Shown here: positions 3,686-57,004 of the stretch, piece by piece
Numbering within the stretch: position 1 is the first letter of the stretch
How the letters are laid out: the number at the start of each line of letters is the position of its first letter
IMG/VR virus record: IMGVR_UViG_3300048060_000074
DNA length: 64,000 nucleotides
Reading direction: 5' to 3' (one strand)
Source: a virus
Program-made: the position numbers and the translations under genes
Notes under the pieces: model-generated
Seen by the model: the letters and a program-made list of their open reading frames with translations, nothing else
What the model was told of the DNA's origin: nothing
Database searches by the model: none

Positions 3686-4691
3686 TGCTATCGCCTTGCG
3701 TGCTGGCAACTGGAACGTCATCGCCGATCACCTTGATGACCTGCGAACGAAACACAGACCAGTCCACGCCAGCATTCTCGGCCTCGATCCTTGCCAGTCT
3801 TAGGCCCTGGCAGGCCGCGCTGACCTTGGCGCTGACTTGGAATTTGATCATGTTAAGGCTTGACGGTTCCTGTGGGGCGGTCAATTCTTGCACTGTGGGG
3901 ATGTCGGCTTGTGAAGAGGGGGCGGCTGCTTGAAGTTGTTGGCTGGCCGGTCCCTGTGTAAGATCGGTCGGTTCCGGCAGCAACGTGTTTGCTATGGACT
4001 GCGCCTGTTTAAGCATCGGCAGCCTGGCGACTTGCGCCTTAATTGCCTCGACGGTGCGCTGCCCGGCAGCCAGCAACTCGGTCGTGAAGGTGTCCTGATC
4101 GTCCTGGTCAACCTTTGACGCGATGATATACGCCTGGCTGTGGTCGATATCCCCGCGTATTACGGCCTCCCGTATCTCTCCGTTGAGCAGCTTCTCGTAC
4201 ACCGTAACCCGCTGCGAGACGTAGGCGCGGCTGTAGCCGATGTGCAGGGCCACCGCGCCCTTTCCACCTTCGCCGAAATCTTTGTCATACGCGGCGGCCA
4301 TCTCTGCGTAGTGGCGGCCTTCGTCCACGGGGTTGACCGATTCGGCATGCAGATTGTCGATTGCCATGCTGCCGATCTCGTCGAACCGGCTCTTGGGGCG
4401 GGACATTCGGGAGGCGGTAACCCACTGGTCTTCCCTTGGGGTTTCGAGGCGGCTGTACGCTTCCTTGGCGGCCTCGATCCGTCGATCTCCGGCGAGGCAT
4501 TGCTTCACGGTCTTGCCGCCGTCTTTTTTCAGATAGTACAGAATGGGGCGGAAATTCGGCGACTCGCCCGAGCCAATGCGGTCCATCATTTGCACGACCA
4601 TTGCCTCGAACTGGGCGTTCCGAACGATCTCCGATCTAAACCCATTCAGTACCAGATCCCAAACGTTCGGTTTCTGCGGATAATCACTCAC
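3678..4691 (-). CDS. parB: ParB/Spo0J-family CTPase and DNA-binding protein
   Basis: LAGDRRIEAAK (GxxR box), IDNLHAESVNPVDEGRHY, HTH-like AVALHIGYSRAYVSQRV. Confidence 0.8.
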   Translation of the reverse strand: MSDYPQKPNVWDLVLNGFRSEIVRNAQFEAMVVQMMDRIGSGESPNFRPILYYLKKDGGKTVKQCLAGDRRIEAAKEAYSRLETPREDQWVTASRMSRPKSRFDEIGSMAIDNLHAESVNPVDEGRHYAEMAAAYDKDFGEGGKGAVALHIGYSRAYVSQRVTVYEKLLNGEIREAVIRGDIDHSQAYIIASKVDQDDQDTFTTELLAAGQRTVEAIKAQVARLPMLKQAQSIANTLLPEPTDLTQGPASQQLQAAAPSSQADIPTVQELTAPQEPSSLNMIKFQVSAKVSAACQGLRLARIEAENAGVDWSVFRSQVIKVIGDDVPVASTQGDSNE

Positions 4692-5163
4692 TGTTTTTCT
4701 CCTTTATTCTGTCCAATTTGTGTTGTGCGATGACCGACTGGGCGCCAGCCAGCGTGTCAGCGCGTTCGTTCTGCGCGTGGCCATTGTGCCCACGCACCCA
4801 ATGAAAATTTAGGCGGCCTTTGTACTGTGCGAGCAGCCTGTCCAGGTCTCTCCACAGGTCTTGGTTCTTGACCGGCTTTCCTTTCTTGGTTCTCCAACCA
4901 CGGGCTTTCCATTTTTCCAGCCACTCCGTGGCTCCCATGCGGACGTACTCGCTATCTGTCCAAATATGTATCTCTGCGTGCTTGGACAGCACGGCGTCCA
5001 GCCCGTCGATCACCGCGAAAAGCTCGGCGCGATTATTCGTCGTATCATACGCATACGATCCGACGATCTTTTCCTTGTTCCCGCTTTGCAAGATCGCGGC
5101 CCACCCGCCAGGGCCCGGGTTCTTCGGACACGAACCATCTGTGAAGATGTCTATCTGTGGCAT
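4684..5163 (-). CDS. rnhA: ribonuclease HI
   Basis: IFTDGSCPKNPGPGGWAA, TTNNRAEL, WTDSEYV, WKARGW, KNQDLW, WVRGHNGHAQNERADTLA. Confidence 0.97.
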   Translation of the reverse strand: MPQIDIFTDGSCPKNPGPGGWAAILQSGNKEKIVGSYAYDTTNNRAELFAVIDGLDAVLSKHAEIHIWTDSEYVRMGATEWLEKWKARGWRTKKGKPVKNQDLWRDLDRLLAQYKGRLNFHWVRGHNGHAQNERADTLAGAQSVIAQHKLDRIKEKNSE

Positions 5164-5226
5164 TACACTCCTTTCGAGGACCGGGAGAGGAGGAGGCCAA
5201 ACCTCCTCTTGTTACCCGGCTCCTTT

Positions 5227-5255
5227 ATTCTATCACGTTTCCTGACGTTTGTCAA
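5227..5255 (-). promoter_or_regulatory. sigma70-type promoter for the rnhA-parB-recT operon
   Basis: TTGACA-17 bp-TAGAAT. Confidence 0.85.
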
Positions 5256-5272: not shown

Positions 5273-5288
5273 TTTTACACGTGTAAAA
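5273..5288. promoter_or_regulatory. 16-bp palindrome TTTTACACGTGTAAAA (inside 26-bp perfect palindrome 5268-5293)
   Basis: exact consensus match; 17 bp upstream of the -35 hexamer. Confidence 0.9.
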
Positions 5289-6524: not shown

Positions 6525-6540
6525 TTTTATACGTATAAAA
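6525..6540. promoter_or_regulatory. 16-bp palindrome TTTTATACGTATAAAA
   Basis: between stop at 6546 and RBS of 6512. Confidence 0.9.
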
Positions 6541-7316: not shown

Positions 7317-7559
7317 TTACCTCCTGTGCTTTTCTGGTGGAAACCAGCCGCCGGTCAGGGCCACCGCTTCCTTTTTGTAGAGTTTTGCGCCGTGTTCGGC
7401 GATATTCTTCGTATCGTACTCGGAGTCTTTCTTGGTGACGCCGATGTACGCGGCCCACTCACGGATCGTCCCGTCGGGGTTGTAGTCGACGACTGCGACG
7501 ACCTCGATCTGGCAGCCCGGTACATTTGACGTGAACACCCGTTCTTTGCCCACTTGCAT
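7317..7559 (-). CDS. hypothetical protein
   Basis: TAATG overlap with sbcD stop. Confidence 0.65.
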   Translation of the reverse strand: MQVGKERVFTSNVPGCQIEVVAVVDYNPDGTIREWAAYIGVTKKDSEYDTKNIAEHGAKLYKKEAVALTGGWFPPEKHRR

Positions 7560-11328: not shown

Positions 11329-11344
11329 TTTTATACGTGTAAAA
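11329..11344. promoter_or_regulatory. 16-bp palindrome TTTTATACGTGTAAAA
   Basis: abuts stop at 11345, precedes RBS of 11311. Confidence 0.9.
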
Positions 11345-14853: not shown

Positions 14854-14869
14854 TTTTACACGTATAAAA
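14854..14869. promoter_or_regulatory. 16-bp palindrome TTTTACACGTATAAAA
   Basis: gene boundary, directly upstream of RBS of 14838. Confidence 0.9.
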
Positions 14870-16312: not shown

Positions 16313-16328
16313 TTTTACACGTATAAAA
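16313..16328. promoter_or_regulatory. 16-bp palindrome TTTTACACGTATAAAA
   Basis: abuts stop at 16329, precedes RBS of 16297. Confidence 0.9.
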
Positions 16329-18891: not shown

Positions 18892-18907
18892 TTTTACACG
18901 TATAAAA
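18892..18907. promoter_or_regulatory. 16-bp palindrome TTTTACACGTATAAAA
   Basis: directly upstream of RBS of 18882. Confidence 0.9.
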
Positions 18908-20667: not shown

Positions 20668-21034
20668 TGATGGTCCTTTCTATGTTAGCGCGACGCCGCT
20701 ATTCGTAATGCATCCTAGAAAATATGACAAAGGGTGTCTTGTTTGACGACCGATTGCTAGCCGATGTTGTATTTATGGACTTTTGGAATTCTAAAAGTCT
20801 AAAAGTCCATATGGGGTGGGTGTCGAAATTTGGCAGGGTTTCTTGCGCCCCGTTTTCCCGCCCTTTGCCCAAAGCGATCTAAATTCTCTTTTTCTCCTAA
20901 CCGATCCGGTTCAAAAAGCATCGAAATACACGGGTCGTGTCTGTGTTTTGCGATTGCGATCTAACCGATCCGGTCAGTCGCTTTGCACGTGTAAAATCAG
21001 CACAAAAGCACCATGGGTGTCTGTGCTGTTGTGT

Positions 21035-23300: not shown

Positions 23301-23316
23301 TTTTACACGTATAAAA
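23301..23316. promoter_or_regulatory. 16-bp palindrome TTTTACACGTATAAAA
   Basis: in the long non-coding region. Confidence 0.9.
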
Positions 23317-31729: not shown

Positions 31730-31745
31730 TTTTATACGTGTAAAA
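31730..31745. promoter_or_regulatory. 16-bp palindrome TTTTATACGTGTAAAA
   Basis: after stop at 31758, before GAGGAG RBS of a small ORF starting at 31716. Confidence 0.9.
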
Positions 31746-32197: not shown

Positions 32198-32226
32198 ATT
32201 ATACTCGTTTTCCTGACATTTGTCAA
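32198..32226 (-). promoter_or_regulatory. consensus sigma70 promoter
   Basis: TTGACA-17-TATAAT. Confidence 0.9.
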
Positions 32227-34723: not shown

Positions 34724-36085
34724 TCACACCACTGCCTCCGGGTGATCCTGCCACTGCCCGGACCCGATGAATTGCTTTAGTTTGAGCACGCCGTCCACGA
34801 GAGCACAGCCTATTTTGGAATTCCCGCCCTTCTTGGCCGGGCCAACGAGCACCCCCGCGGCGTAATAGTTTCTGTAGGCATGTCTGATGTCCGCCTGAAT
34901 GACGTCTCTGGTCTTCCCGTCAACTTGCCTCGTCATCGAGCCCCTGACGTTCTTAAAGGCGTCCGTCTGTCCGGTCGCCTTGTCGCCGACTCGGCGGTTT
35001 GCCGCAATCTCTTTCCACAACCGATATCGCCAGTCGGAAAAGTCGGATATCTCGGCGGCTACCAACTCGTCTATCTCGCCTGGCTGGACGAGTAGTGATT
35101 TGCCTCTTTTTGGACGGGACATTTCGTCAAGTATGAACTCGCCCTTGGCTACCGGCAATTTTTTTGGCTTGTAACCAAGAACCACATCGGCCTGTGCTGC
35201 TGTTCGTACCCGGAAACATATTCGCCTGTCAAAGTTGATAGTGATCGTTTTTGGAATAATGTCAAACCGTGGATATTGGGTCGCGTAAACCAGGTGAATC
35301 TTTGCCCCTGCGGCCTGCATGGCAAGAGTTTTCATGGCCTGGATGCCCGGGTTTCGGTGTTCGTTACCTTCCACTGTGATTTTTCCGACCTCATCTATAA
35401 TAAGAATTGTGGGCCTGCGATCCGACTTTCTCTCGAATCTCTTCTGGGCCTCAATTCTTAGATCGACTAGCAACTTCATTGCCTCGTTCATGTCCCGAAC
35501 GTAGACACCAAAAGCCCCAAACTTATACAATTCCTCGTCCATGTCTGCTTTCAGGTCTATAATGTAGATGATCGGTCGCTGCGCTTTTGGTTTTGCGCAG
35601 AGCTGTATCAAGATAGATAAGATTTCATTGGTTTTACCCGTTCTGGTAAGACCGGCGACGAGGGTGTGCCCATCGCCCAAGTCGACTGTGATCGGGCGCC
35701 CCTTTCGGTCGTATCCCAAAATAACCGAGAGGGAACTTTTGGACAAATTCGGGTGCGTGGCTGCTACGTCAAGGCTGCGGGCAGCCACCGGCGGGCCCTG
35801 CGGCGCGGCCCTCTTGTCTTCCTCGATCTGCTTTTGCCACTTGCCGATGCGCTTCACCGTCTTCACGGCACAAACCACGACGAGGATGATTATCGTCGCG
35901 ATTATGTACTGAACCTTGGACTTGAACGTGCCGTTCCAGGCAACAGCGAGCAGGAACATTGCTGCTGGAATACCGAAGACCCAGCGCCAGCCAATATCCC
36001 TGGCGATGTCTCCTGGCAAAGCGACGAGTGCAACGATGGCCGCCGCAAGCAATACCCACGAGCCGAACGCTATGGACTTTTTCAT
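34724..36085 (-). CDS. FtsK/SpoIIIE-family ATPase with N-terminal TM helices
   Basis: three hydrophobic segments; HTLVAGLTRTGKT, IIDLK, LIIDEV, IHLVYATQYP, RRICFRV, GEFIL. Confidence 0.85.
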   Translation of the reverse strand: MKKSIAFGSWVLLAAAIVALVALPGDIARDIGWRWVFGIPAAMFLLAVAWNGTFKSKVQYIIATIIILVVVCAVKTVKRIGKWQKQIEEDKRAAPQGPPVAARSLDVAATHPNLSKSSLSVILGYDRKGRPITVDLGDGHTLVAGLTRTGKTNEILSILIQLCAKPKAQRPIIYIIDLKADMDEELYKFGAFGVYVRDMNEAMKLLVDLRIEAQKRFERKSDRRPTILIIDEVGKITVEGNEHRNPGIQAMKTLAMQAAGAKIHLVYATQYPRFDIIPKTITINFDRRICFRVRTAAQADVVLGYKPKKLPVAKGEFILDEMSRPKRGKSLLVQPGEIDELVAAEISDFSDWRYRLWKEIAANRRVGDKATGQTDAFKNVRGSMTRQVDGKTRDVIQADIRHAYRNYYAAGVLVGPAKKGGNSKIGCALVDGVLKLKQFIGSGQWQDHPEAVV

Positions 36086-36702
36086 TGCGGGTTCCACAAC
36101 CATTTGTTGAGCATCTGTTTCACAATTTCCTTTTCCATCTCTGCCGGTATCACATCGCGCGAAGTCCAGTCCCGGAGATTCTGAACGAGGAATTGATCCT
36201 CTGTCTCAGGCTCTAGCTGCTTGAACGTGATGGGGGCCTTCTTGATCTCCTCCATGAGCCTTAGCGGTACACGCTCTCCCTCAAAGTACACGTGCTTGTT
36301 TGAGCTCGCTTTTACACGTGTAAAACCCAAGTACTTTTCGTGGATCCAGCGTTTCTCTTCGGTCGCAATCGCGTTGATGTCGTCCCCCTTGTTGTGCTCG
36401 CACAGTATACCTTTAAGGCGACGCAATGTCGATTTTCCTCTGGGATAATCCACGATTATCCACCACTCTGCATTCCACCTGGCGATCTCCATTGCCAGGG
36501 GGATTGCGAGAATGAGGAGTGGGGGGATCGCCATTGCATACAGGGGGCGATAGAGGAGGCCAAGCCCTACCGAGACAGATAGCGAAATCGCAAGCCACCA
36601 AACAAAATCTGCCACTTCTTCGACTAGCTCGAACCAGTGGCGGCGGGTGGCGTATCTTAGCTTAGTGCCCTCAGGAGGGCGCCAGTTCTTGGGCAGCTTC
36701 AT
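36082..36702 (-). CDS. membrane protein, PH-domain-like C-terminus
   Basis: two TM helices followed by a beta-rich soluble part; start uncertain. Confidence 0.5.
   Translation of the reverse strand: MKLPKNWRPPEGTKLRYATRRHWFELVEEVADFVWWLAISLSVSVGLGLLYRPLYAMAIPPLLILAIPLAMEIARWNAEWWIIVDYPRGKSTLRRLKGILCEHNKGDDINAIATEEKRWIHEKYLGFTRVKASSNKHVYFEGERVPLRLMEEIKKAPITFKQLEPETEDQFLVQNLRDWTSRDVIPAEMEKEIVKQMLNKWLWNPQ
36310..36325. promoter_or_regulatory. 16-bp palindrome TTTTACACGTGTAAAA (intragenic)
   Basis: exact match inside a coding frame (GFTRVK). Confidence 0.8.
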
Positions 36703-37945: not shown

Positions 37946-38125
37946 TCAAAACGCTCTGAACCTTTCTGTGCCTGTCGCCAGGCGAATAACCGTCAACGCA
38001 ATAGAGCAGACAAAAAATGCCACGGCGGCGATAAATGCGCGTTCTGGATAGTCGTTGCCGAATACCCAGACAGCAGAGAAAAAGATTGCGGCCAGCCAAC
38101 TTATCCCTAGAAGGATGTTAAGCAT
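37946..38125 (-). CDS. small membrane protein
   Basis: AAGGAG RBS; two TM helices. Confidence 0.6.
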   Translation of the reverse strand: MLNILLGISWLAAIFFSAVWVFGNDYPERAFIAAVAFFVCSIALTVIRLATGTERFRAF

Positions 38126-38315
38126 TTTTCTCCTTCTCTCGGACGAACCACCGGGCGATTGCATCGCCCACCGTGATCCCTGTGGCTTCAGTATCGCCAT
38201 ACCGACCTGTGGTCGCATGTGCCCACAGGCGTATCGTCGCAAAATACACGAGCCACCTTGGCAAAAGCCAGGCGACCCACATCTTGAAACGATACCTTAT
38301 ACGATGCATGTACAT
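38118..38315 (-). CDS. hypothetical protein
   Basis: AAGGAG RBS; first gene of the leftward arm. Confidence 0.65.
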   Translation of the reverse strand: MYMHRIRYRFKMWVAWLLPRWLVYFATIRLWAHATTGRYGDTEATGITVGDAIARWFVREKEKNA

Positions 38316-38329
38316 GTCTCTCCTTTCAA

Positions 38330-38848
38330 TATGCCGGGCAATGCTCCCGGCGGTCGGCCTTTAAAAGGTGGTGGCATCGGGCTGGCTAGTCATCTACGAA
38401 CAGACCCCAGATGTTCCCGTTGGCGCTGCCGTCTAGCCGGCTACCACCGGCCCCGCACAAGTGCTACGGGCTACTGTCTCGTACAGCACAGCCACCACAA
38501 TGCAAGGCGCCGGCTCGCTCTATAGCACGACCGATCTTTTAAGTGGGGGACTATGACCTCCACAGCCACCCTTGCAAATATGAGTCTCGGCTTCGGTTTC
38601 CACTCTTAGTTTTTCTGTATTCGGCAGGTCGGGCTGTACACGCCCTACGGAATTTACTTTACCGCAAAGCTGCTTTGAAAGGGTCACACCGCGCCGATTA
38701 TCAGGGAATACCTGGCTTTACTACCGTGCCTCGTCCTTGGCAGAAGGGTCTAGAATTTCCACCAAGCCTGCATCGTGGTATCCAGGCTGATTGTACCCAT
38801 AACGTTCCCCTGCGGTATTTACGCATCCTCGCGGTTACCGAGACTCAC
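38330..38848 (-). ncRNA. putative large structured RNA or 5' leader (leftward)
   Basis: starts at the predicted TSS; TGAGTCTCGG 38581-38590 pairs with CCGAGACTCA 38838-38847; many internal hairpins; no RBS-supported ORF. Confidence 0.5.
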
Positions 38849-38854
38849 AGATAA

Positions 38855-38883
38855 AGTATACCACCCTTCCTGACATTTGTCAA
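38855..38883 (-). promoter_or_regulatory. leftward sigma70 promoter of the divergent pair
   Basis: TTGACA-17-TATACT. Confidence 0.85.
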
Positions 38884-38900
38884 GTACGCTTTTCAGTCGA

Positions 38901-38916
38901 TTTTATACGTATAAAA
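38901..38916. promoter_or_regulatory. 16-bp palindrome TTTTATACGTATAAAA centred between divergent promoters
   Basis: 17 bp from each -35 hexamer. Confidence 0.92.
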
Positions 38917-38933
38917 CGTGCCCAAATACCCCC

Positions 38934-38962
38934 TTGACAAACGTCCTGATCTGTGATAGACT
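38934..38962 (+). promoter_or_regulatory. rightward sigma70 promoter of the divergent pair
   Basis: TTGACA-17-TAGACT. Confidence 0.85.
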
Positions 38963-38968
38963 AAGATC

Positions 38969-39640
38969 GCATCGAGGATCTGCCGAATCTCATCTTCTCC
39001 TCCTTTATTCTGTCACGAGTCGGTATGAGCAGCCGACTAACAAAATTGCTCCCTGACAACGGGGCGGCTGGCAGCCGGCAGCCGCCCCGATTGGGTGGGG
39101 AGCACAGAGACCTCAGAGCAATAAGCATCTCGCACTCAGCCTCTTTTGTTTTTCTTGGGGCGCCAGTGCCCGTAGCGGGCGCTCACCTGCTACATGCGAG
39201 GTGCCGCTGGACGCCCAAGAAAAGCACGAGAGGCTTTATGTTTCAGTCGTTTTGGCTAAACACAATCAAATCAATGCAGCACGCCAGTTCGCTGAAACAC
39301 TAAGCCCTGCCCGAACAATGCGGCGGGGTTTTCTGCTTCGCCCTGACGCTACATACTGTACGAGCCGTAAGTCCCAGGCAGCCCCCGAGGGCGAGAGGTT
39401 GACGAGAGGCAGTAAATCCAGATTCCGCATAGCGGCCCCGCCGGGTTACACCAGGGGATGATGGACAAACACCGAAAGGTGTACGTGGTAAGTACCCGCC
39501 TGGTCACGTTTGAGTCCATTCCACGAAAGTGGCTGTGAAAGCGACCGACCGACCGACCGACGGTCATACGTCACCACAGGTCCTCCCTATTTTACGGGGG
39601 GATCTGTCTTCTCCCTCTCTCCCTCCCTCAAGTCATACTC
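38969..39640 (+). ncRNA. putative large structured RNA or 5' leader (rightward)
   Basis: CGGGGCGGCTG/CAGCCGCCCCG, AGTCGG/CCGACT, GCATCTCGCA/TGCGAGGTGC, GAAA tetraloops at 39469-39482 and 39521-39532. Confidence 0.55.
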
Positions 39641-39702
39641 ACAGGAACACAAACAGCAGAAGGCGAGAGAAGCAAGAAGGGGAAGAAGAAAGGGGAAACA
39701 GA

Positions 39703-39921
39703 ATGCCAACAAAGTTTGGAACAGCGACAGTAAGTGAACATGGAGATAACTTTCTAATCGAAGCGCCCTGGTGCGAAGAATTCATTCCAGCCATAAAGAA
39801 GTTACCAAAAGGGTCTCGCTGGTGGGACCCCATCCTTAAAGGGTGGCTGGTAAGAGACGAGGTCTATACCAAGGCACTCGTCATCGTGTCAAGATTCTTT
39901 AACATCGAGTACGAAGACTAG
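39703..39921 (+). CDS. small protein (WDP..K.W motif)
   Basis: AGGGG RBS; MPTKFG...RWWDPILKGWLV. Confidence 0.65.
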   Translation: MPTKFGTATVSEHGDNFLIEAPWCEEFIPAIKKLPKGSRWWDPILKGWLVRDEVYTKALVIVSRFFNIEYED

Positions 39922-39928
39922 ATTCCGG

Positions 39929-39944
39929 TTTTACACGTGTAAAA
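39929..39944. promoter_or_regulatory. 16-bp palindrome TTTTACACGTGTAAAA
   Basis: between stop at 39921 and RBS of 39955. Confidence 0.9.
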
Positions 39945-39954
39945 CGAAAGGAAA

Positions 39955-40416
39955 ATGATGACGGAAACAAGATTCATTACGAGTATGTCCACGATAGCCA
40001 AAGAGTCGACATCGCTGATCGCGCATCATGATAGTGACTCATTGGAGGAGCGTATTGCCAGTCTCCTCTCGATTTCCAGAAAGTCGCGACGGCTTGCAGA
40101 ACAACTAGATCGTGCGAGGCTGAGACAGGTGCGGTTTGCCGAGGAGGATATCTACCTCGAAATAGCCGTCATCGAGCCAGCCCAGTATCCGTATGGGTTC
40201 AGCGCAAACCTCGCTCTTTATTTCGACGACCTGGAGCAAGCTAACTATTCTGTGGAAGAAATGCTTCTGAATCGTGGCGTAATAGACAAAAGAACGTCTA
40301 TAACCGACACAGAGCAAGACTGTTTTTGCATCTACTTCACAGATATGAAGGCTGGATCAGAGTTCATCTACCGGCTGAACGCTTTTCTGGACGAGCACGT
40401 GGCGGGGGTGGTATGA
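39955..40416 (+). CDS. hypothetical protein
   Basis: AAAGGA RBS. Confidence 0.7.
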   Translation: MMTETRFITSMSTIAKESTSLIAHHDSDSLEERIASLLSISRKSRRLAEQLDRARLRQVRFAEEDIYLEIAVIEPAQYPYGFSANLALYFDDLEQANYSVEEMLLNRGVIDKRTSITDTEQDCFCIYFTDMKAGSEFIYRLNAFLDEHVAGVV

Positions 40417-41400: not shown

Positions 41401-43065
41401 TTGGCAAAGTCTCTCTCCAGGCTGGTCAGCGAAGAACAGCTAGAAGAACTCAAGAAGTGCAGCCAAAGTGTCATCTATTGGCTTACCAAGTATGTCTACC
41501 TAAGACATACTACTCAGGGGAAGATTCCTTGGGACAAGCCATACCCGTACCAGGTAGAGTTTCTTGAAGCTCTAGAGCGTGGTGAGGATGTTCTGTGTTG
41601 CAAGTCCCGCCGTGTTGGGGCGTCCTGGACAGCGTGCGCGTTTGTTCTATGGCGGATTATGTTCCGCCCGGATATCACCTGCCTATTGCTGTCCAGAAAA
41701 CAAAAACTTGCCGAGGGGTTGCTCGTCAGGGTAAAGTTCATCCTGAAGCACCTGCCGGAGTGGATGCGCCCGAAGGTGGTTGCCCAGAATAAGAGTGAAA
41801 TTGTCTTTCGTTTCGTCTTTCGTGGTAACGTTGGCGAGTCAAATGTCCTCTCCCTCACCACCACTGACGACAGTGGCAGAGGCGAAGACGCCGCCGTGGT
41901 GCTAATGGACGAAGCGGCGTTTATGCAGAACGCCGACGACGTTTGGTCGGCGATTGGCCCGACGGCGGCCTTTGGCGGGCAGAGAGCAGTCATCTCGACG
42001 CCAAACGGGGTCGGTGGACTTTTCCATAGATTGGTCTCCGAGTCTCGCCTTGGGGTCGACAACGGGTTCACCTACCTTGAGGCCCATTGGAAAAGGGACT
42101 GCGGCCTTTCCGATGAGTGGTACGTTAGAGCCACGCGCGGAATGGGCCTGCTCAAGAAACAGCAGGAATTCGGCCTGGTGTTCCTGTCATCTGGCAGGCC
42201 ATTCTTTGACCTGAATGCGCTGAACCGCTGCTACAAGCCGACTAGCAGGTTTCCCGAGATTGCATCGGCGATGTGCAAAACGGCAATGAACTTTGGCGGT
42301 GTTGATACGTCGGAGGGGCATACGCTAGCCGATGGCGGCCAGCCAGATTTTCATTCGATCACCATACTCAACCAGTACGGTGTTCAGATTTATCAGTACT
42401 CGAACAACAAAATCAGCCAGAGAGAGTTCTCTGGCTACACCGAGCGACTGCCAGATGGACAGGCCGTCGAGGTGGAGAGCGTTCCAAGCAAGATACACCG
42501 GGAGTATCCAGGGATGATGGCTATCGAGCGGTGGGGGAGCGGCGATATAACCTACGCCCACCACCAGGTGCCTCTTGATGGGCGGTCGAACGTCGTAGCC
42601 CGCAGGCAGACCAACTCGTCGAAAATGTCCGGTCTAAACGCGCTTCGTCGAATGATAAACGACGATGCGATAGTGATAACGGACCAATTCACTTACCATT
42701 GCTGTACGACGTTCGAGGACCAGACTTCTGGAATCGTCCAGAAGGCTGCTGCCTCGAAGGGGTCATTCGACGACCCGGTGATCACCCTAATGCTCGCCGC
42801 GCGTGAGTGGGAGCGGTGGGGTGGCTACCAGTTCGATCTTACATCTATCGGCCAAACATCAGGGGGACAAAGAGCGGTCGGGCTGCGCCAACAGTCCGAT
42901 ATGGCGCAAGGTGATTTGGCAAAACTTTTACCAGTTGGAACAATTGCGCAGGGCCCGCTTTGGCAAGAGCGGGAACCATTCGAGCCCGGGGAAGGCAATC
43001 GGAGGTATAGCGATGACATCGACCTCGTCCGCAGAGGAAAAAAGATGCGTCCGACCGGGCTGTAG
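41401..43065 (+). CDS. terL: terminase large subunit
   Basis: KSRRVGASW Walker A, VLMDEAAF Walker B, ISTPNG, nuclease GVDTSEG and SFDDPV. Confidence 0.93.
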   Translation: MAKSLSRLVSEEQLEELKKCSQSVIYWLTKYVYLRHTTQGKIPWDKPYPYQVEFLEALERGEDVLCCKSRRVGASWTACAFVLWRIMFRPDITCLLLSRKQKLAEGLLVRVKFILKHLPEWMRPKVVAQNKSEIVFRFVFRGNVGESNVLSLTTTDDSGRGEDAAVVLMDEAAFMQNADDVWSAIGPTAAFGGQRAVISTPNGVGGLFHRLVSESRLGVDNGFTYLEAHWKRDCGLSDEWYVRATRGMGLLKKQQEFGLVFLSSGRPFFDLNALNRCYKPTSRFPEIASAMCKTAMNFGGVDTSEGHTLADGGQPDFHSITILNQYGVQIYQYSNNKISQREFSGYTERLPDGQAVEVESVPSKIHREYPGMMAIERWGSGDITYAHHQVPLDGRSNVVARRQTNSSKMSGLNALRRMINDDAIVITDQFTYHCCTTFEDQTSGIVQKAAASKGSFDDPVITLMLAAREWERWGGYQFDLTSIGQTSGGQRAVGLRQQSDMAQGDLAKLLPVGTIAQGPLWQEREPFEPGEGNRRYSDDIDLVRRGKKMRPTGL

Positions 43066-46703: not shown

Positions 46704-46719
46704 TTTTATACGTATAAAA
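46704..46719. promoter_or_regulatory. 16-bp palindrome TTTTATACGTATAAAA
   Basis: abuts stop at 46703, at the head of the glycan island. Confidence 0.9.
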
Positions 46720-51411: not shown

Positions 51412-52003
51412 AATCATAGAACACAGTACGTTTGTTGATATAGACAAGATCATGTACACCTCCAGAGGCGTACATGGAGATAGCTGCACATCGGACGACT
51501 TGCTTCGTTTGTTGACAGTCAGGTACGGTGGGCATATCAAATTAGAACTCGGCCCTGGCCGCATAGGCGGAGCGCCGTGGGGGAAAGCGCCGTGGGCGAC
51601 GATTGGGCTCAATCATAGTTCCGATCCGCACTCCGACATTTATTATGACTTGAGCCGTGGGATCCCGCTTCCTGACAAATCTGTGGACGAGATACATTCA
51701 AATCAAGTTCTTGAGCACCTAAGAGACCCCATTAAGATCATGAACGAGCAATGGAGAGTGCTCAAGCCAGGCGGGTTTGTTTACGCCTGCGTGCCGCATT
51801 ATCTGGCGCCGTCGGCGTGTGGCGATCCAACTCACAGAACATTCTGGAGCGAAACATCGTTTCAGTACTACTGCTTACGCGATGATGGAACGCCGTTTGT
51901 AGACAGGTTTTCCGATTATGGAATCAAATGCAGGTTCATTTTGGAGGAGCATACATGGCAACGAATGGTGCACGTGACTGCGAAATTGCGCAAGCCCCTG
52001 TAG
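51404..52003 (+). CDS. class I SAM methyltransferase
   Basis: LELGPG, DLSRGIPLPDKSVD, VLEHL, RVLKPGG, GDPTH. Confidence 0.85.
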   Translation: MSRIIEHSTFVDIDKIMYTSRGVHGDSCTSDDLLRLLTVRYGGHIKLELGPGRIGGAPWGKAPWATIGLNHSSDPHSDIYYDLSRGIPLPDKSVDEIHSNQVLEHLRDPIKIMNEQWRVLKPGGFVYACVPHYLAPSACGDPTHRTFWSETSFQYYCLRDDGTPFVDRFSDYGIKCRFILEEHTWQRMVHVTAKLRKPL

Positions 52004-52590
52004 CTGTGCAAGATGGCAGATTTGCCGGAATACAGAAGCACGAGCTTGAATGGTGGACTAACTACAACTACATGCCGTGGGGTGAGTGGACGCAGTACCA
52101 CTCAAAACTTCATATGCATCTGCGACCATTCAGGTCTGTCGCCGACGTAGGAAGTGGGCCGGTGCCGTTTTTCTTGTCCGGTGTCATCTTCTATGAAGAC
52201 GCCATTGCAATCGACCCGTTGATAAGCAAGTACTTGTCGATTGAGCGATACAAGCAGTATCACGACAAGGAATTTGGCTGTTTTTCCAGGATAGAGGATG
52301 TCTGCGAGAAGATGTTCGATGGCGTGTTTTGTCTCAACACTATCGACCACGTTCGAGACCCAACCGCTTTCATCTCTGAACTGGATCGCATTCTTGAGCC
52401 TGGTGGCAGGTTGTATGTCTGTGTGGATGTAGAAAAGCCGCCGGACCCGCTTCATCCTCATATGATCCACGCCGACTGGCTCGACGAGCAGTTTTCATTT
52501 TACACGTATAAAACGCTCTTGCGGCAGGTCGTGCCGAGCTTCAAGTTCCAGAATGACCTTTATTGGTTTGTTGGAGATAAGGAGGAATAG
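51955..52590 (+). CDS. class I SAM methyltransferase
   Basis: GGAGGAG RBS; ADVGSGP, AIDPL, FDGVFCLNTIDH, RILEPGG. Confidence 0.85.
   Translation: MATNGARDCEIAQAPVAVQDGRFAGIQKHELEWWTNYNYMPWGEWTQYHSKLHMHLRPFRSVADVGSGPVPFFLSGVIFYEDAIAIDPLISKYLSIERYKQYHDKEFGCFSRIEDVCEKMFDGVFCLNTIDHVRDPTAFISELDRILEPGGRLYVCVDVEKPPDPLHPHMIHADWLDEQFSFYTYKTLLRQVVPSFKFQNDLYWFVGDKEE
52498..52513. promoter_or_regulatory. 16-bp palindrome TTTTACACGTATAAAA (intragenic)
   Basis: exact match inside a coding frame (FYTYK). Confidence 0.8.
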
Positions 52591-56890: not shown

Positions 56891-56919
56891 TTGACTCCAG
56901 ACACATAATGTGGTAGAAT
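56891..56919 (+). promoter_or_regulatory. sigma70-type promoter
   Basis: TTGACT-17-TAGAAT. Confidence 0.75.
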
Positions 56920-56949
56920 AGCATATAGAAGAGCCTGAAGGGGAAACCG

Positions 56950-56982
56950 AGGGGCCGCAAGATATCTTGCGGCCCCTTTTTT
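56950..56982 (+). terminator. intrinsic terminator
   Basis: 28-bp perfect palindrome AGGGGCCGCAAGATATCTTGCGGCCCCT followed by a T-run. Confidence 0.85.
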
Positions 56983-56988
56983 GTTTCA

Positions 56989-57004
56989 TTTTACACGTAT
57001 AAAA
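56989..57004. promoter_or_regulatory. 16-bp palindrome TTTTACACGTATAAAA
   Basis: between the terminator and the 1213-aa gene. Confidence 0.9.

Follow-up and report, generated by a model that had tools for sequence, protein, structure and literature searches.

A dispersed 16-bp palindrome lies 17 bp upstream of three promoters of an uncultured phage and is a candidate site for a ParB-like protein

The DNA analyzed here (the window; 64,000 nucleotides [nt] of IMG/VR virus record IMGVR_UViG_3300048060_000074) comes from an uncultured phage with a T4-type large terminase (TerL; positions 41401-43065), a Mu-type portal fusion, RuvC, RNase H, and glycosylation genes. At 38.9 kb, gene direction switches from leftward (lower coordinates) to rightward (higher coordinates), and the cumulative GC skew has a turning point. 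The same sequence is present in JGI and Logan sediment assemblies, with one contig of 89,481 bp, and the coordinate offsets point to a genome of about 89 kb that is circularly permuted. At the junction of the two gene arms, within a ~1.4-kb stretch without credible open reading frames (ORFs), two promoters stand back to back around a perfect 16-bp palindrome (TTTTATACGTATAAAA), whose candidate binder is a ParB-like protein encoded elsewhere in the window (Table 1).

By direct reading, the leftward promoter P_L is TTGACA-17-TATACT and the rightward promoter P_R is TTGACA-17-TAGACT, and the -10 box of each is preceded by TGn (extended -10). All four gaps between 38855 and 38962 (two hexamer spacers and two linkers from palindrome to -35 box) measure exactly 17 bp; an initial annotation, made from the sequence alone, had described this layout correctly to the base. 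It had also pointed to a third promoter (5255-5227; P5255) with an identical 17-bp gap to its own copy of the palindrome (5273-5288), and the sequence agrees. P_L, P_R, and P5255 match the consensus at 11, 10, and 11 of 12 positions, respectively, each with a 17-bp spacer and an extended -10. If transcription starts 7 nt after the -10 box, as predicted (near 38848 for P_L and 38969 for P_R), the palindrome center (38908.5) falls at -60.5 to -61.5, as against the earlier estimate of about -61, and lies 28 bp from the -35 center. The resemblance to the class I activator position (CRP at lac) that the annotation had drawn from this holds at all three promoters for the predicted starts. Three of the eight strong promoters lie exactly 17 bp from a palindrome copy (P ~5e-7, even if both features are taken as limited to ~7 kb of noncoding DNA), and chance is excluded as the source of the arrangement. 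All three linkers carry an A-tract at about -45 to -43.

The promoter modules at 5255 and 38883 are alike beyond their hexamers (11 of 17 linker bases and a common spacer), so that they may be duplicates and hence not independent cases of the 17-bp gap. An 18-mer, CTCCTTTATTCTRTCACG, is found both at 5220-5237, where it forms the -10/start region of P5255, and at 39000-39017, ~35 nt downstream of the P_R start on the opposite strand and without a matching -35 box; to judge from its sequence, the copy at 39000 is probably the remnant of a duplicated promoter module.

Beyond TTGACA, four promoters (5255, 32226, 38883, and partly 38934), which match 10 to 12 of the 12 consensus positions, have TTGACAAAYGTCAGGAA in common. 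This string includes an inverted repeat, TGACA-NN-TGTCA, across the -35 box and spacer, and a second putative operator, TGACAAAYGTCA, is thereby placed on the -35 box of the three palindrome-bearing promoters. The palindrome lies 17 bp upstream in three of the four members of this class, and the promoter at 32226 is the sole member without it; a terminator hairpin (GGGGGCAG...CTGCCCCC) occupies the region upstream of that promoter, to 32270. The centers of palindrome and second operator are 32 bp apart, or 3.05 helical turns, and because this is about three turns, dimers bound at the two sites would share one face of the helix.

The palindrome belongs to a degenerate family, TTTTAYACGTRTAAAA, with 15 matches in the window (14 exact and one with two mismatches; 0.05 expected) and three further copies in the flanks outside it, giving at least 18 over 73 kb of the ~89-kb genome. 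The half-site GTRTAAAA is never solitary: its 29 matches, where ~2 in all would be expected by chance, are the 28 arms of the 14 exact palindromes plus the one intact arm of the degenerate copy. Multiple copies of a short palindrome, restricted to the element and read as two half-sites, are the mark of a parS- or OB-type site, and 12 of 16 positions are identical to canonical parS (TGTTTCACGTGAAACA, a string confirmed in the literature) in the same 16-bp palindromic layout. Over the 73 kb, the copies are spaced more regularly than random (coefficient of variation, 0.59; P ~0.01, with 1% of random placements as even). Only 3 of the 18 are at promoters, and the other 15 have no promoter nearby. 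Nine window copies sit in intergenic gaps of 31 to 44 nt that hold little beyond a stop codon, the palindrome, and the Shine-Dalgarno (SD) region and are too short for a sigma-70 promoter; the stop codon often abuts the palindrome, and the distance from palindrome to ATG is 10 to 17 nt (once 28 nt). The flank copy L111:14993 has the same stop-palindrome-SD layout. Two other copies are intragenic, the one at 56989 comes after a terminator, another is enclosed by a stop codon and a terminator where two genes converge, and the rest are otherwise intergenic. When the gap copies were checked for adjacent sigma-70 promoters and upstream -10-like elements, no consistent pattern was seen. Judged by its sequence and distribution, TTTTAYACGTRTAAAA is a dimer-binding DNA site and not a promoter-specific element.

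Two of these copies have terminators beside them. At 56891-57004, a promoter (TTGACT-17-TAGAAT) reads into a 13-bp terminator stem (56949-56978) and then the palindrome at 56989, which is therefore downstream of the promoter and not upstream; a gene for a serine-rich protein of 1,213 amino acids comes next. The copy at the convergent junction (L110:7200-7255, ~2.6 kb left of the window start) has the stop codon of a Dam-like methyltransferase gene on one side and, on the other, a strong terminator, which consists of CCCGACCTTCGCGAAGGTCGGG followed by a T-run.

The nine copies found 10 to 17 nt upstream of a start codon, beside an SD sequence, would also suit an RNA or DNA hairpin (a processing site, translational operator, terminator, or hairpin promoter) or a phage-specific promoter, and the C..G variant of the motif does fold, at -5.9 kcal/mol. 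However, positions 6 and 11 vary independently (4 C..G, 3 T..A, 4 C..A, and 4 T..G, in the gene sense), and the four C..A copies, as gene-sense RNA, do not fold (0 kcal/mol, against -0.2 to -5.9 kcal/mol for the others). Because the two positions show no covariation and the C..A variants stay unfolded, the palindrome would be a DNA site for a protein dimer and not a hairpin. A transcript starting downstream of the motif would moreover lose the SD sequence, copies are also found at the convergent junction, within genes, and between the divergent promoters, and the window showed no gene for a phage RNA polymerase. We regard a hairpin or promoter function as highly improbable.

P5255 drives an operon in which the gene for the ParB-like protein (P0001, or P0002 from an inner start) lies 3' of an RNase H gene, and a palindrome at that promoter is the layout expected for autoregulation. 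A sequence search of 1.84 billion cluster representatives returned only four matches to P0001/P0002 (E values, 1e-4 to 9e-4), all of them bona fide proteins with Pfam ParB_N and HTH_ParB domains above the cut-off. P0001 has an AGDRRIEAA (GxRR) box, an DNLHAESVNPVDEG box, and a putative helix-turn-helix (HTH), and its residues 66 to 76 (AGDRRIEAAKE) align with the invariant G-x-R-R-x-x-A of ParB proteins. An AF2 model built on a 64-sequence ParB alignment reached a predicted local distance difference test (pLDDT) score of >90 over residues ~90 to 210 (a single-sequence model, 38), and its best structural matches were Spo0J (1vz0; E value, 3e-7), ParB (6t1f), and Noc (7nfu), then KorB (8qa9). 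The putative HTH is in this confidently modeled part, which resembles the DNA-binding domains of ParB, Noc, and KorB. Identity to chromosomal ParB/Noc is ~20%, a very remote relationship, and residues ~220 to 307 contain no recognizable ParB dimerization domain. The motif for ParA binding, given as (L/F/I)G(K/R)G(L/F/I) (PMC12704722), is absent from the protein, and no ParA-type ATPase was found among ~69 ORFs scanned, with ~11 kb of the genome outside the data; on both counts, the protein differs from a member of a canonical ParABS partition system. Sequence and model together point to a remote ParB/Noc-type protein without a ParA partner. Orphan ParB-like proteins are common in phages and have no assigned function (survey, PMC12704722).

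This protein likely binds the palindrome, which is probably the docking site of the phage's own ParB-type clamp. It is unlikely that some different dimeric regulator, an unrecognized phage protein or a host factor, binds there while the ParB-like protein has other targets. No family could be assigned to most proteins of this phage, the relationship of P0001 to ParB is remote (E values of about 1e-4 to 1e-3), and no relative with both protein and site was recovered for a comparison of covariation; yet the palindrome equals parS at those 12 of 16 positions with an identical 16-bp layout, the fold is closest to chromosomal ParB and Noc, which read such sites, and the promoter of the ParB-like operon itself has the site. 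A word-based search for the protein found only itself, and tblastn against the retrieved relatives gave no match.

The nearest precedent for such an arrangement is plasmid RK2, which has 12 OB sites on 60 kb, at a few bp to >1 kb from promoters, and OA or OT as core-promoter operators (PMC11790492, PMC13768133). KorB is made an effective repressor by core-promoter-bound KorA or TrbA, and its targets are near consensus (PMC11790492, PMC13584720, PMC13768133). A ParB-family global regulator with dispersed operators is thus a kind of system already known from plasmids. The phage shares with RK2 a ParB-family protein and a mobile genome with many short palindromic operators (RK2 has 12 within 60 kb, the phage at least 18 within ~89 kb), of which only part are beside promoters and the others are intergenic or intragenic. 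In both, the target promoters are near consensus and have a second operator at their core, and the regulator's own operon is among the targets. It differs in being a phage; in the absence of ParA (IncC), KorA, and TrbA homologues from the ORFs scanned; in a protein fold nearer to chromosomal ParB/Noc; and in a site that is parS-like instead of TTTAGCSGCTAAA. Whereas OB abuts the -35 box at PkorA, a 17-bp gap separates the two in the phage, and whereas OA and OT overlap the -10 box, the second phage operator overlaps the -35 box and spacer; repression, established for RK2, would be by analogy in the phage.

On this analogy, we tentatively favor a reading in which a ParB-type clamp and a protein at the second operator repress P_L, P_R, and P5255 in the manner of KorB with KorA or TrbA. 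The palindromes, dispersed rather evenly over the genome, would be loading sites for the ParB-like protein, and at three early-class sigma-70 promoters (P_L, P_R, and that of the protein's own operon) a copy precedes the -35 box by 17 bp. The palindrome-bound dimer or clamp would lie on the same DNA face as the second-operator protein, 32 bp or about three turns away, and together with this TGACAAAYGTCA-binding protein would repress the near-consensus promoters. As a result, the ParB operon would be autoregulated, and both arms would be shut off from one central site.

Relatives bear on these readings in several ways. None of the collections examined (phage, IMG/VR, JGI metagenomes, and GTDB) yielded a relative with the same motif. 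Among INPHARED phages, there was no DNA match, and TerL matches had only ~25% identity, IMG/VR gave only partial TerL matches (31 to 42%), a search with the promoter string gave no match, and a TerL-profile scan of species genomes yielded neither a relative nor a clue to the host. The 105 single-copy matches of a palindrome-only search were taken as chance, and the pattern "palindrome, 5-30 nt, TTGACA" gave 19 JGI-metagenome and 13 GTDB matches that were single-copy, mostly AT-rich, and unrelated, none with a 17-nt gap.

Cold-seep run X4 contains a 156-nt contig (depth, 3) that is ~88% identical over 38830-38950; three differences near its ends are not in the substitution list considered here, and it represents one relative only. 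Substitutions affect the distal part of the P_L spacer (38862-38866) and, with 4 changes but an unaltered 17-bp length, the left linker. None falls in 38867-38887, which holds the second operator and -35 box, and the palindrome has a single change, T38906C, at a tolerated degenerate Y position. The right linker is 9 nt longer (26 bp instead of 17 bp), which puts the palindrome 41 bp (3.9 turns) from the second operator on the right arm and the site center near -70.5. Strict spacing is refuted by this, and a same-face requirement is not, because the gain of 9 bp is about one helical turn. In this one relative, both operators appear constrained and the left gap has its usual length, but the 17/17 symmetry is not preserved. 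A spacing not conserved in relatives had been named in the initial annotation as grounds for rejecting its proposal, and in X4, the only relative seen to carry the palindrome at its promoters, the left gap is 17 bp and the right one 26 bp.

Three syntenic contigs with 43 to 55% TerL identity (L139, L140, and L141) have back-to-back near-consensus sigma-70 promoters at the arm junction (3800-3910, 30-135, and 7390-7470, respectively), with -35 to -35 distances of 16, 41, and 50 bp. Neither the palindrome nor the TGACAnnTGTCA operator is present at these promoters. Since these relatives keep divergent promoters that lack both operators, the promoters would function in this phage family without the palindrome, and from their sequences the two operators appear to be an extra layer of regulation specific to one lineage. 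One candidate correspondence, L140:1258 as the positional homologue of the palindrome copy at 39929, was dropped: the first right-arm genes of L140 are not detectably homologous to those of the window.

Class I activator sites center near -61.5, -71.5, or -82.5, on the right helical face. The initial annotation had proposed that one palindrome-bound protein activates both arms. A single dimer site symmetric to both promoters and a likely ParB-type binder fit the data; activation fits them poorly. In a class I mechanism, a dimer on the palindrome near -61 would touch the C-terminal domains (CTDs) of the RNA polymerase alpha subunits on both sides and stimulate P_L, P_R, and P5255. The exact geometry at three promoters (center at -60.5/-61.5, 28 bp from the -35 center) suits this, as does the A-tract where the alpha-CTD would sit, and the 9-bp insertion of X4, nearly one turn, moves the site to about -70.5, beside the allowed -71.5. 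CRP at lac likewise has a dimer palindrome near -61.5, 28 bp from the -35 center, with an A-rich stretch between. Activators of the ParB family are also known, among them VirB (PMC10770331) and NAH7 ParB (PMC12421886), so that activation would be less unusual for a ParB-type protein than the annotation had supposed.

The promoters themselves speak against an activator. The core of a class I promoter tends to be weak and dependent on its activator, but the three here match 11, 10, and 11 of 12 consensus positions with an extended -10, for which an activator should be unneeded. The fourth promoter of the class (32226, 12 of 12) lacks the palindrome, as do the strong divergent promoters of L139, L140, and L141; 15 of the 18 copies have no promoter in reach; an operator over the -35 box suggests negative control, being of repressor type; and the 17/17 symmetry became 17/26 in X4. 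Unlike the CRP site at lac, moreover, the palindrome serves near-consensus core promoters, belongs to a genome-wide and mostly promoterless site family, and has a likely ParB-type binder. We therefore consider class I bidirectional activation quite unlikely. The fuller version, in which a ParA-less phage protein of the ParB-CTPase type is a true class I-style activator that recruits polymerase to two divergent promoters from one -61 site, is more doubtful still; if true, it would mean that both arms and the protein's own operon are switched on by direct recruitment and not by silencing or anti-silencing. For repression speak the same promoter strength (10 to 12 of 12 with TGn), the TTGACAAAYGTCAGGAA string common to four promoters, the operators kept in X4, and the TerL relatives without the site, although a sequence does not by itself reveal whether control is positive or negative.

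A direct role at promoters may also be lacking altogether, the palindromes being loading sites for a clamp that acts genome-wide in DNA organization, plasmid-like segregation, Noc-like membrane tethering, or protection; the copy at 38901 would then lie between promoters only because noncoding stretches are few. We consider this proposal somewhat unlikely. The even dispersal of the copies is in its favor, as are the many copies in minimal stop-palindrome-SD gaps, the two intragenic ones, and those of L140, which lie only away from promoters. Polymerase can pass ParB complexes, and ParB sliding usually leaves expression unaffected (PMC11790492). But the same 17-bp gap at three promoters is far beyond chance, the left linker is still 17 bp despite four substitutions in X4, the 1.4-kb noncoding region offers many other positions, and one of the three promoters drives the ParB-like operon itself.

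Several points weigh against the repression model that we favor. The Pfam HTH_ParB match of P0001 (E value, 8.5e-4; 19.9 bits) is under the 22.6-bit cut-off, ParB_N is not detected in it directly, and the AF2 model leans on an alignment of ParB family members and is partly circular. The link between protein and palindrome draws on parS likeness, fold, and operon arrangement. Neither a KorA/TrbA-like family nor a binder of TGACAAAYGTCA was found among the small ORFs scanned, where an unrelated analogue is conceivable. P_R drives late-type genes (terminase and portal), a poor fit with a simple early shut-off, and L140 has the core palindrome TTTACACGTGTAAA twice elsewhere in its contig and none at its promoters. 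A sliding clamp by itself needs no exact 17-bp spacing, so that only the same-face argument explains the geometry, and a site center at -61 is also the classic activator position.

Other ParB-type systems offer partial parallels. With the chromosomal ParB-parS and Noc-NBS systems (CTP-dependent clamps on 16-bp palindromes), the phage shares a site with a CACGTG/TACGTA core that is parS at 12 of 16 positions and a protein with a GxRR box and a putative HTH whose best structural matches are Spo0J, ParB, and Noc; with Noc, it also shares the lack of a ParA partner and the dispersal of sites. The ~20% identity, a C-terminal part that is not a recognizable dimerization domain, and sites on a phage genome, three of them in a fixed promoter-proximal geometry, set it apart. 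Shigella VirB (PMC10770331, PMC10653881) and NAH7 ParB at parS_NAH (PMC12421886) are ParB-type proteins that raise transcription from parS-like sites upstream. VirB, unlike the proposed phage regulator, relieves H-NS silencing, possibly from far upstream and with no fixed class I geometry, and in the phage the region has 52 to 53% GC, with no sign of an AT-rich, silenced target. Work by Ravin, Rech, and Lane in 2008 reportedly indicated that SopB sites influence late gene expression in the phage-plasmid N15. N15 SopB resembles the present case in acting on a phage genome with dispersed inverted repeats, four centromere sites designated IR1-4 (PMC7205306), and differs in that a partner, SopA, and a plasmid prophage state are known for it, neither of which is evident in this phage.

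What is particular here is the fixed -61 geometry at three consensus promoters, with one site common to a divergent pair and paired with a second, promoter-overlapping operator. Were the repression model correct, the phage would run a plasmid-style global circuit in which a clamp with ~18 loading sites and a promoter-bound factor control both arms and the clamp's own gene; long-range or clamp-based control of transcription has so far been established mainly for RK2 KorB. With three consensus sigma-70 promoters, which should work in Escherichia coli, one 16-bp site, and one protein of 337 amino acids, the system is a compact test bed for the effect of a phage ParB-type protein (repression, activation, or none) and for the importance of helical phasing.

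Table 1. Promoters, operators, palindrome copies, and regulator genes in the 64,000-nt window
Feature	Position	Strand	Basis
P_L -10 box, AGTATA (reverse complement TATACT)	38855-38860	-	Direct reading
P_L -35 box, TGTCAA (reverse complement TTGACA)	38878-38883	-	Direct reading
Palindrome TTTTATACGTATAAAA, 16-bp perfect, center of divergent switch; putative parS/OB-like site	38901-38916	.	Direct reading
P_R -35 box, TTGACA	38934-38939	+	Direct reading
P_R -10 box, TAGACT	38957-38962	+	Direct reading
Leftward promoter P_L, extended TG; ~520-nt leader, then left-arm genes	38855-38883	-	
Rightward promoter P_R, extended TG; ~735-nt noncoding leader with EGFOA-like RNA, then right-arm genes	38934-38962	+	
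Third promoter, TTGACA-17-TAGAAT, with -35/spacer operator TGACAAACGTCA; drives RNase H and ParB-like gene	5227-5255	-	
Palindrome copy TTTTACACGTGTAAAA, 17 bp upstream of -35 box of promoter 5255-5227	5273-5288	.	
Putative second operator TGACATTTGTCA (TGACA-NN-TGTCA), overlaps P_L -35 box and spacer; 32 bp center to center from palindrome	38871-38882	.	
Imperfect second-operator copy TGACAAACGTCC, overlaps P_R -35 box and spacer; 32 bp center to center from palindrome	38935-38946	.	
Fourth promoter, 12/12 consensus, operator TGACAAATGTCA, terminator hairpin upstream instead of palindrome	32198-32226	-	
Orphan ParB/Noc-type protein, P0001 (P0002 from inner start), candidate palindrome binder, 337 amino acids	3678-4691	-	
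RNase HI-like gene, sequence MPQIDIFTDGSCPKNPGPGGW..., first in operon with ParB-like gene	4684-5163	-	Sequence and ORF
Palindrome copy, 33-nt intergenic gap (stop, palindrome, SD, ATG)	6525-6540	.	
Palindrome copy, intergenic gap, abuts TGA stop	11329-11344	.	
Palindrome copy, intergenic gap, abuts TGA stop	14854-14869	.	
Palindrome copy, intergenic gap, abuts TGA stop	16313-16328	.	
Palindrome copy, intergenic gap	18892-18907	.	
Degenerate copy CTTTGCACGTGTAAAA, 2 mismatches, intergenic	20981-20996	.	
Palindrome copy, low-GC noncoding island	23301-23316	.	
Palindrome copy, intergenic gap	31730-31745	.	
Palindrome copy, intragenic (gene 36082-36702)	36310-36325	.	
Palindrome copy between right-arm genes 1 and 2, 10 nt before ATG	39929-39944	.	
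Palindrome copy, intergenic gap, abuts TGA stop	46704-46719	.	
Palindrome copy within 3' part of methyltransferase gene (51928-52590)	52498-52513	.	
Palindrome copy right after strong terminator, before gene for 1,213-amino-acid serine-rich protein	56989-57004	.	

The P_L leader runs to the first gene with an SD sequence (ATG at 38315), and that of P_R runs to the ATG at 39703. An origin role for the switch region has little in its favor: its one support is the minimum of the cumulative GC skew, where a change of gene direction is a confounding factor, and no iterons or other origin-type repeats were found in 38000-40100. Scans of the window for tRNAs and for Rfam families at the gathering threshold returned nothing. 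Below that threshold, EGFOA RNA (RF02955) has a full-length match at 39412-39521 (+) in the rightward leader (32 bits versus a gathering score of 37.7; E value, 1.4e-3), and 39399-39567 is ~98% conserved in the cold-seep relative, versus ~88% for the promoter region. The same leader has a (CGAC)5/(GACC)n tandem run (39542-39561) and a CT-rich tract (39600-39630), both of which recur in L140 (812-832 and 871-903), where the rightward leader is also long and has a polypyrimidine tract.

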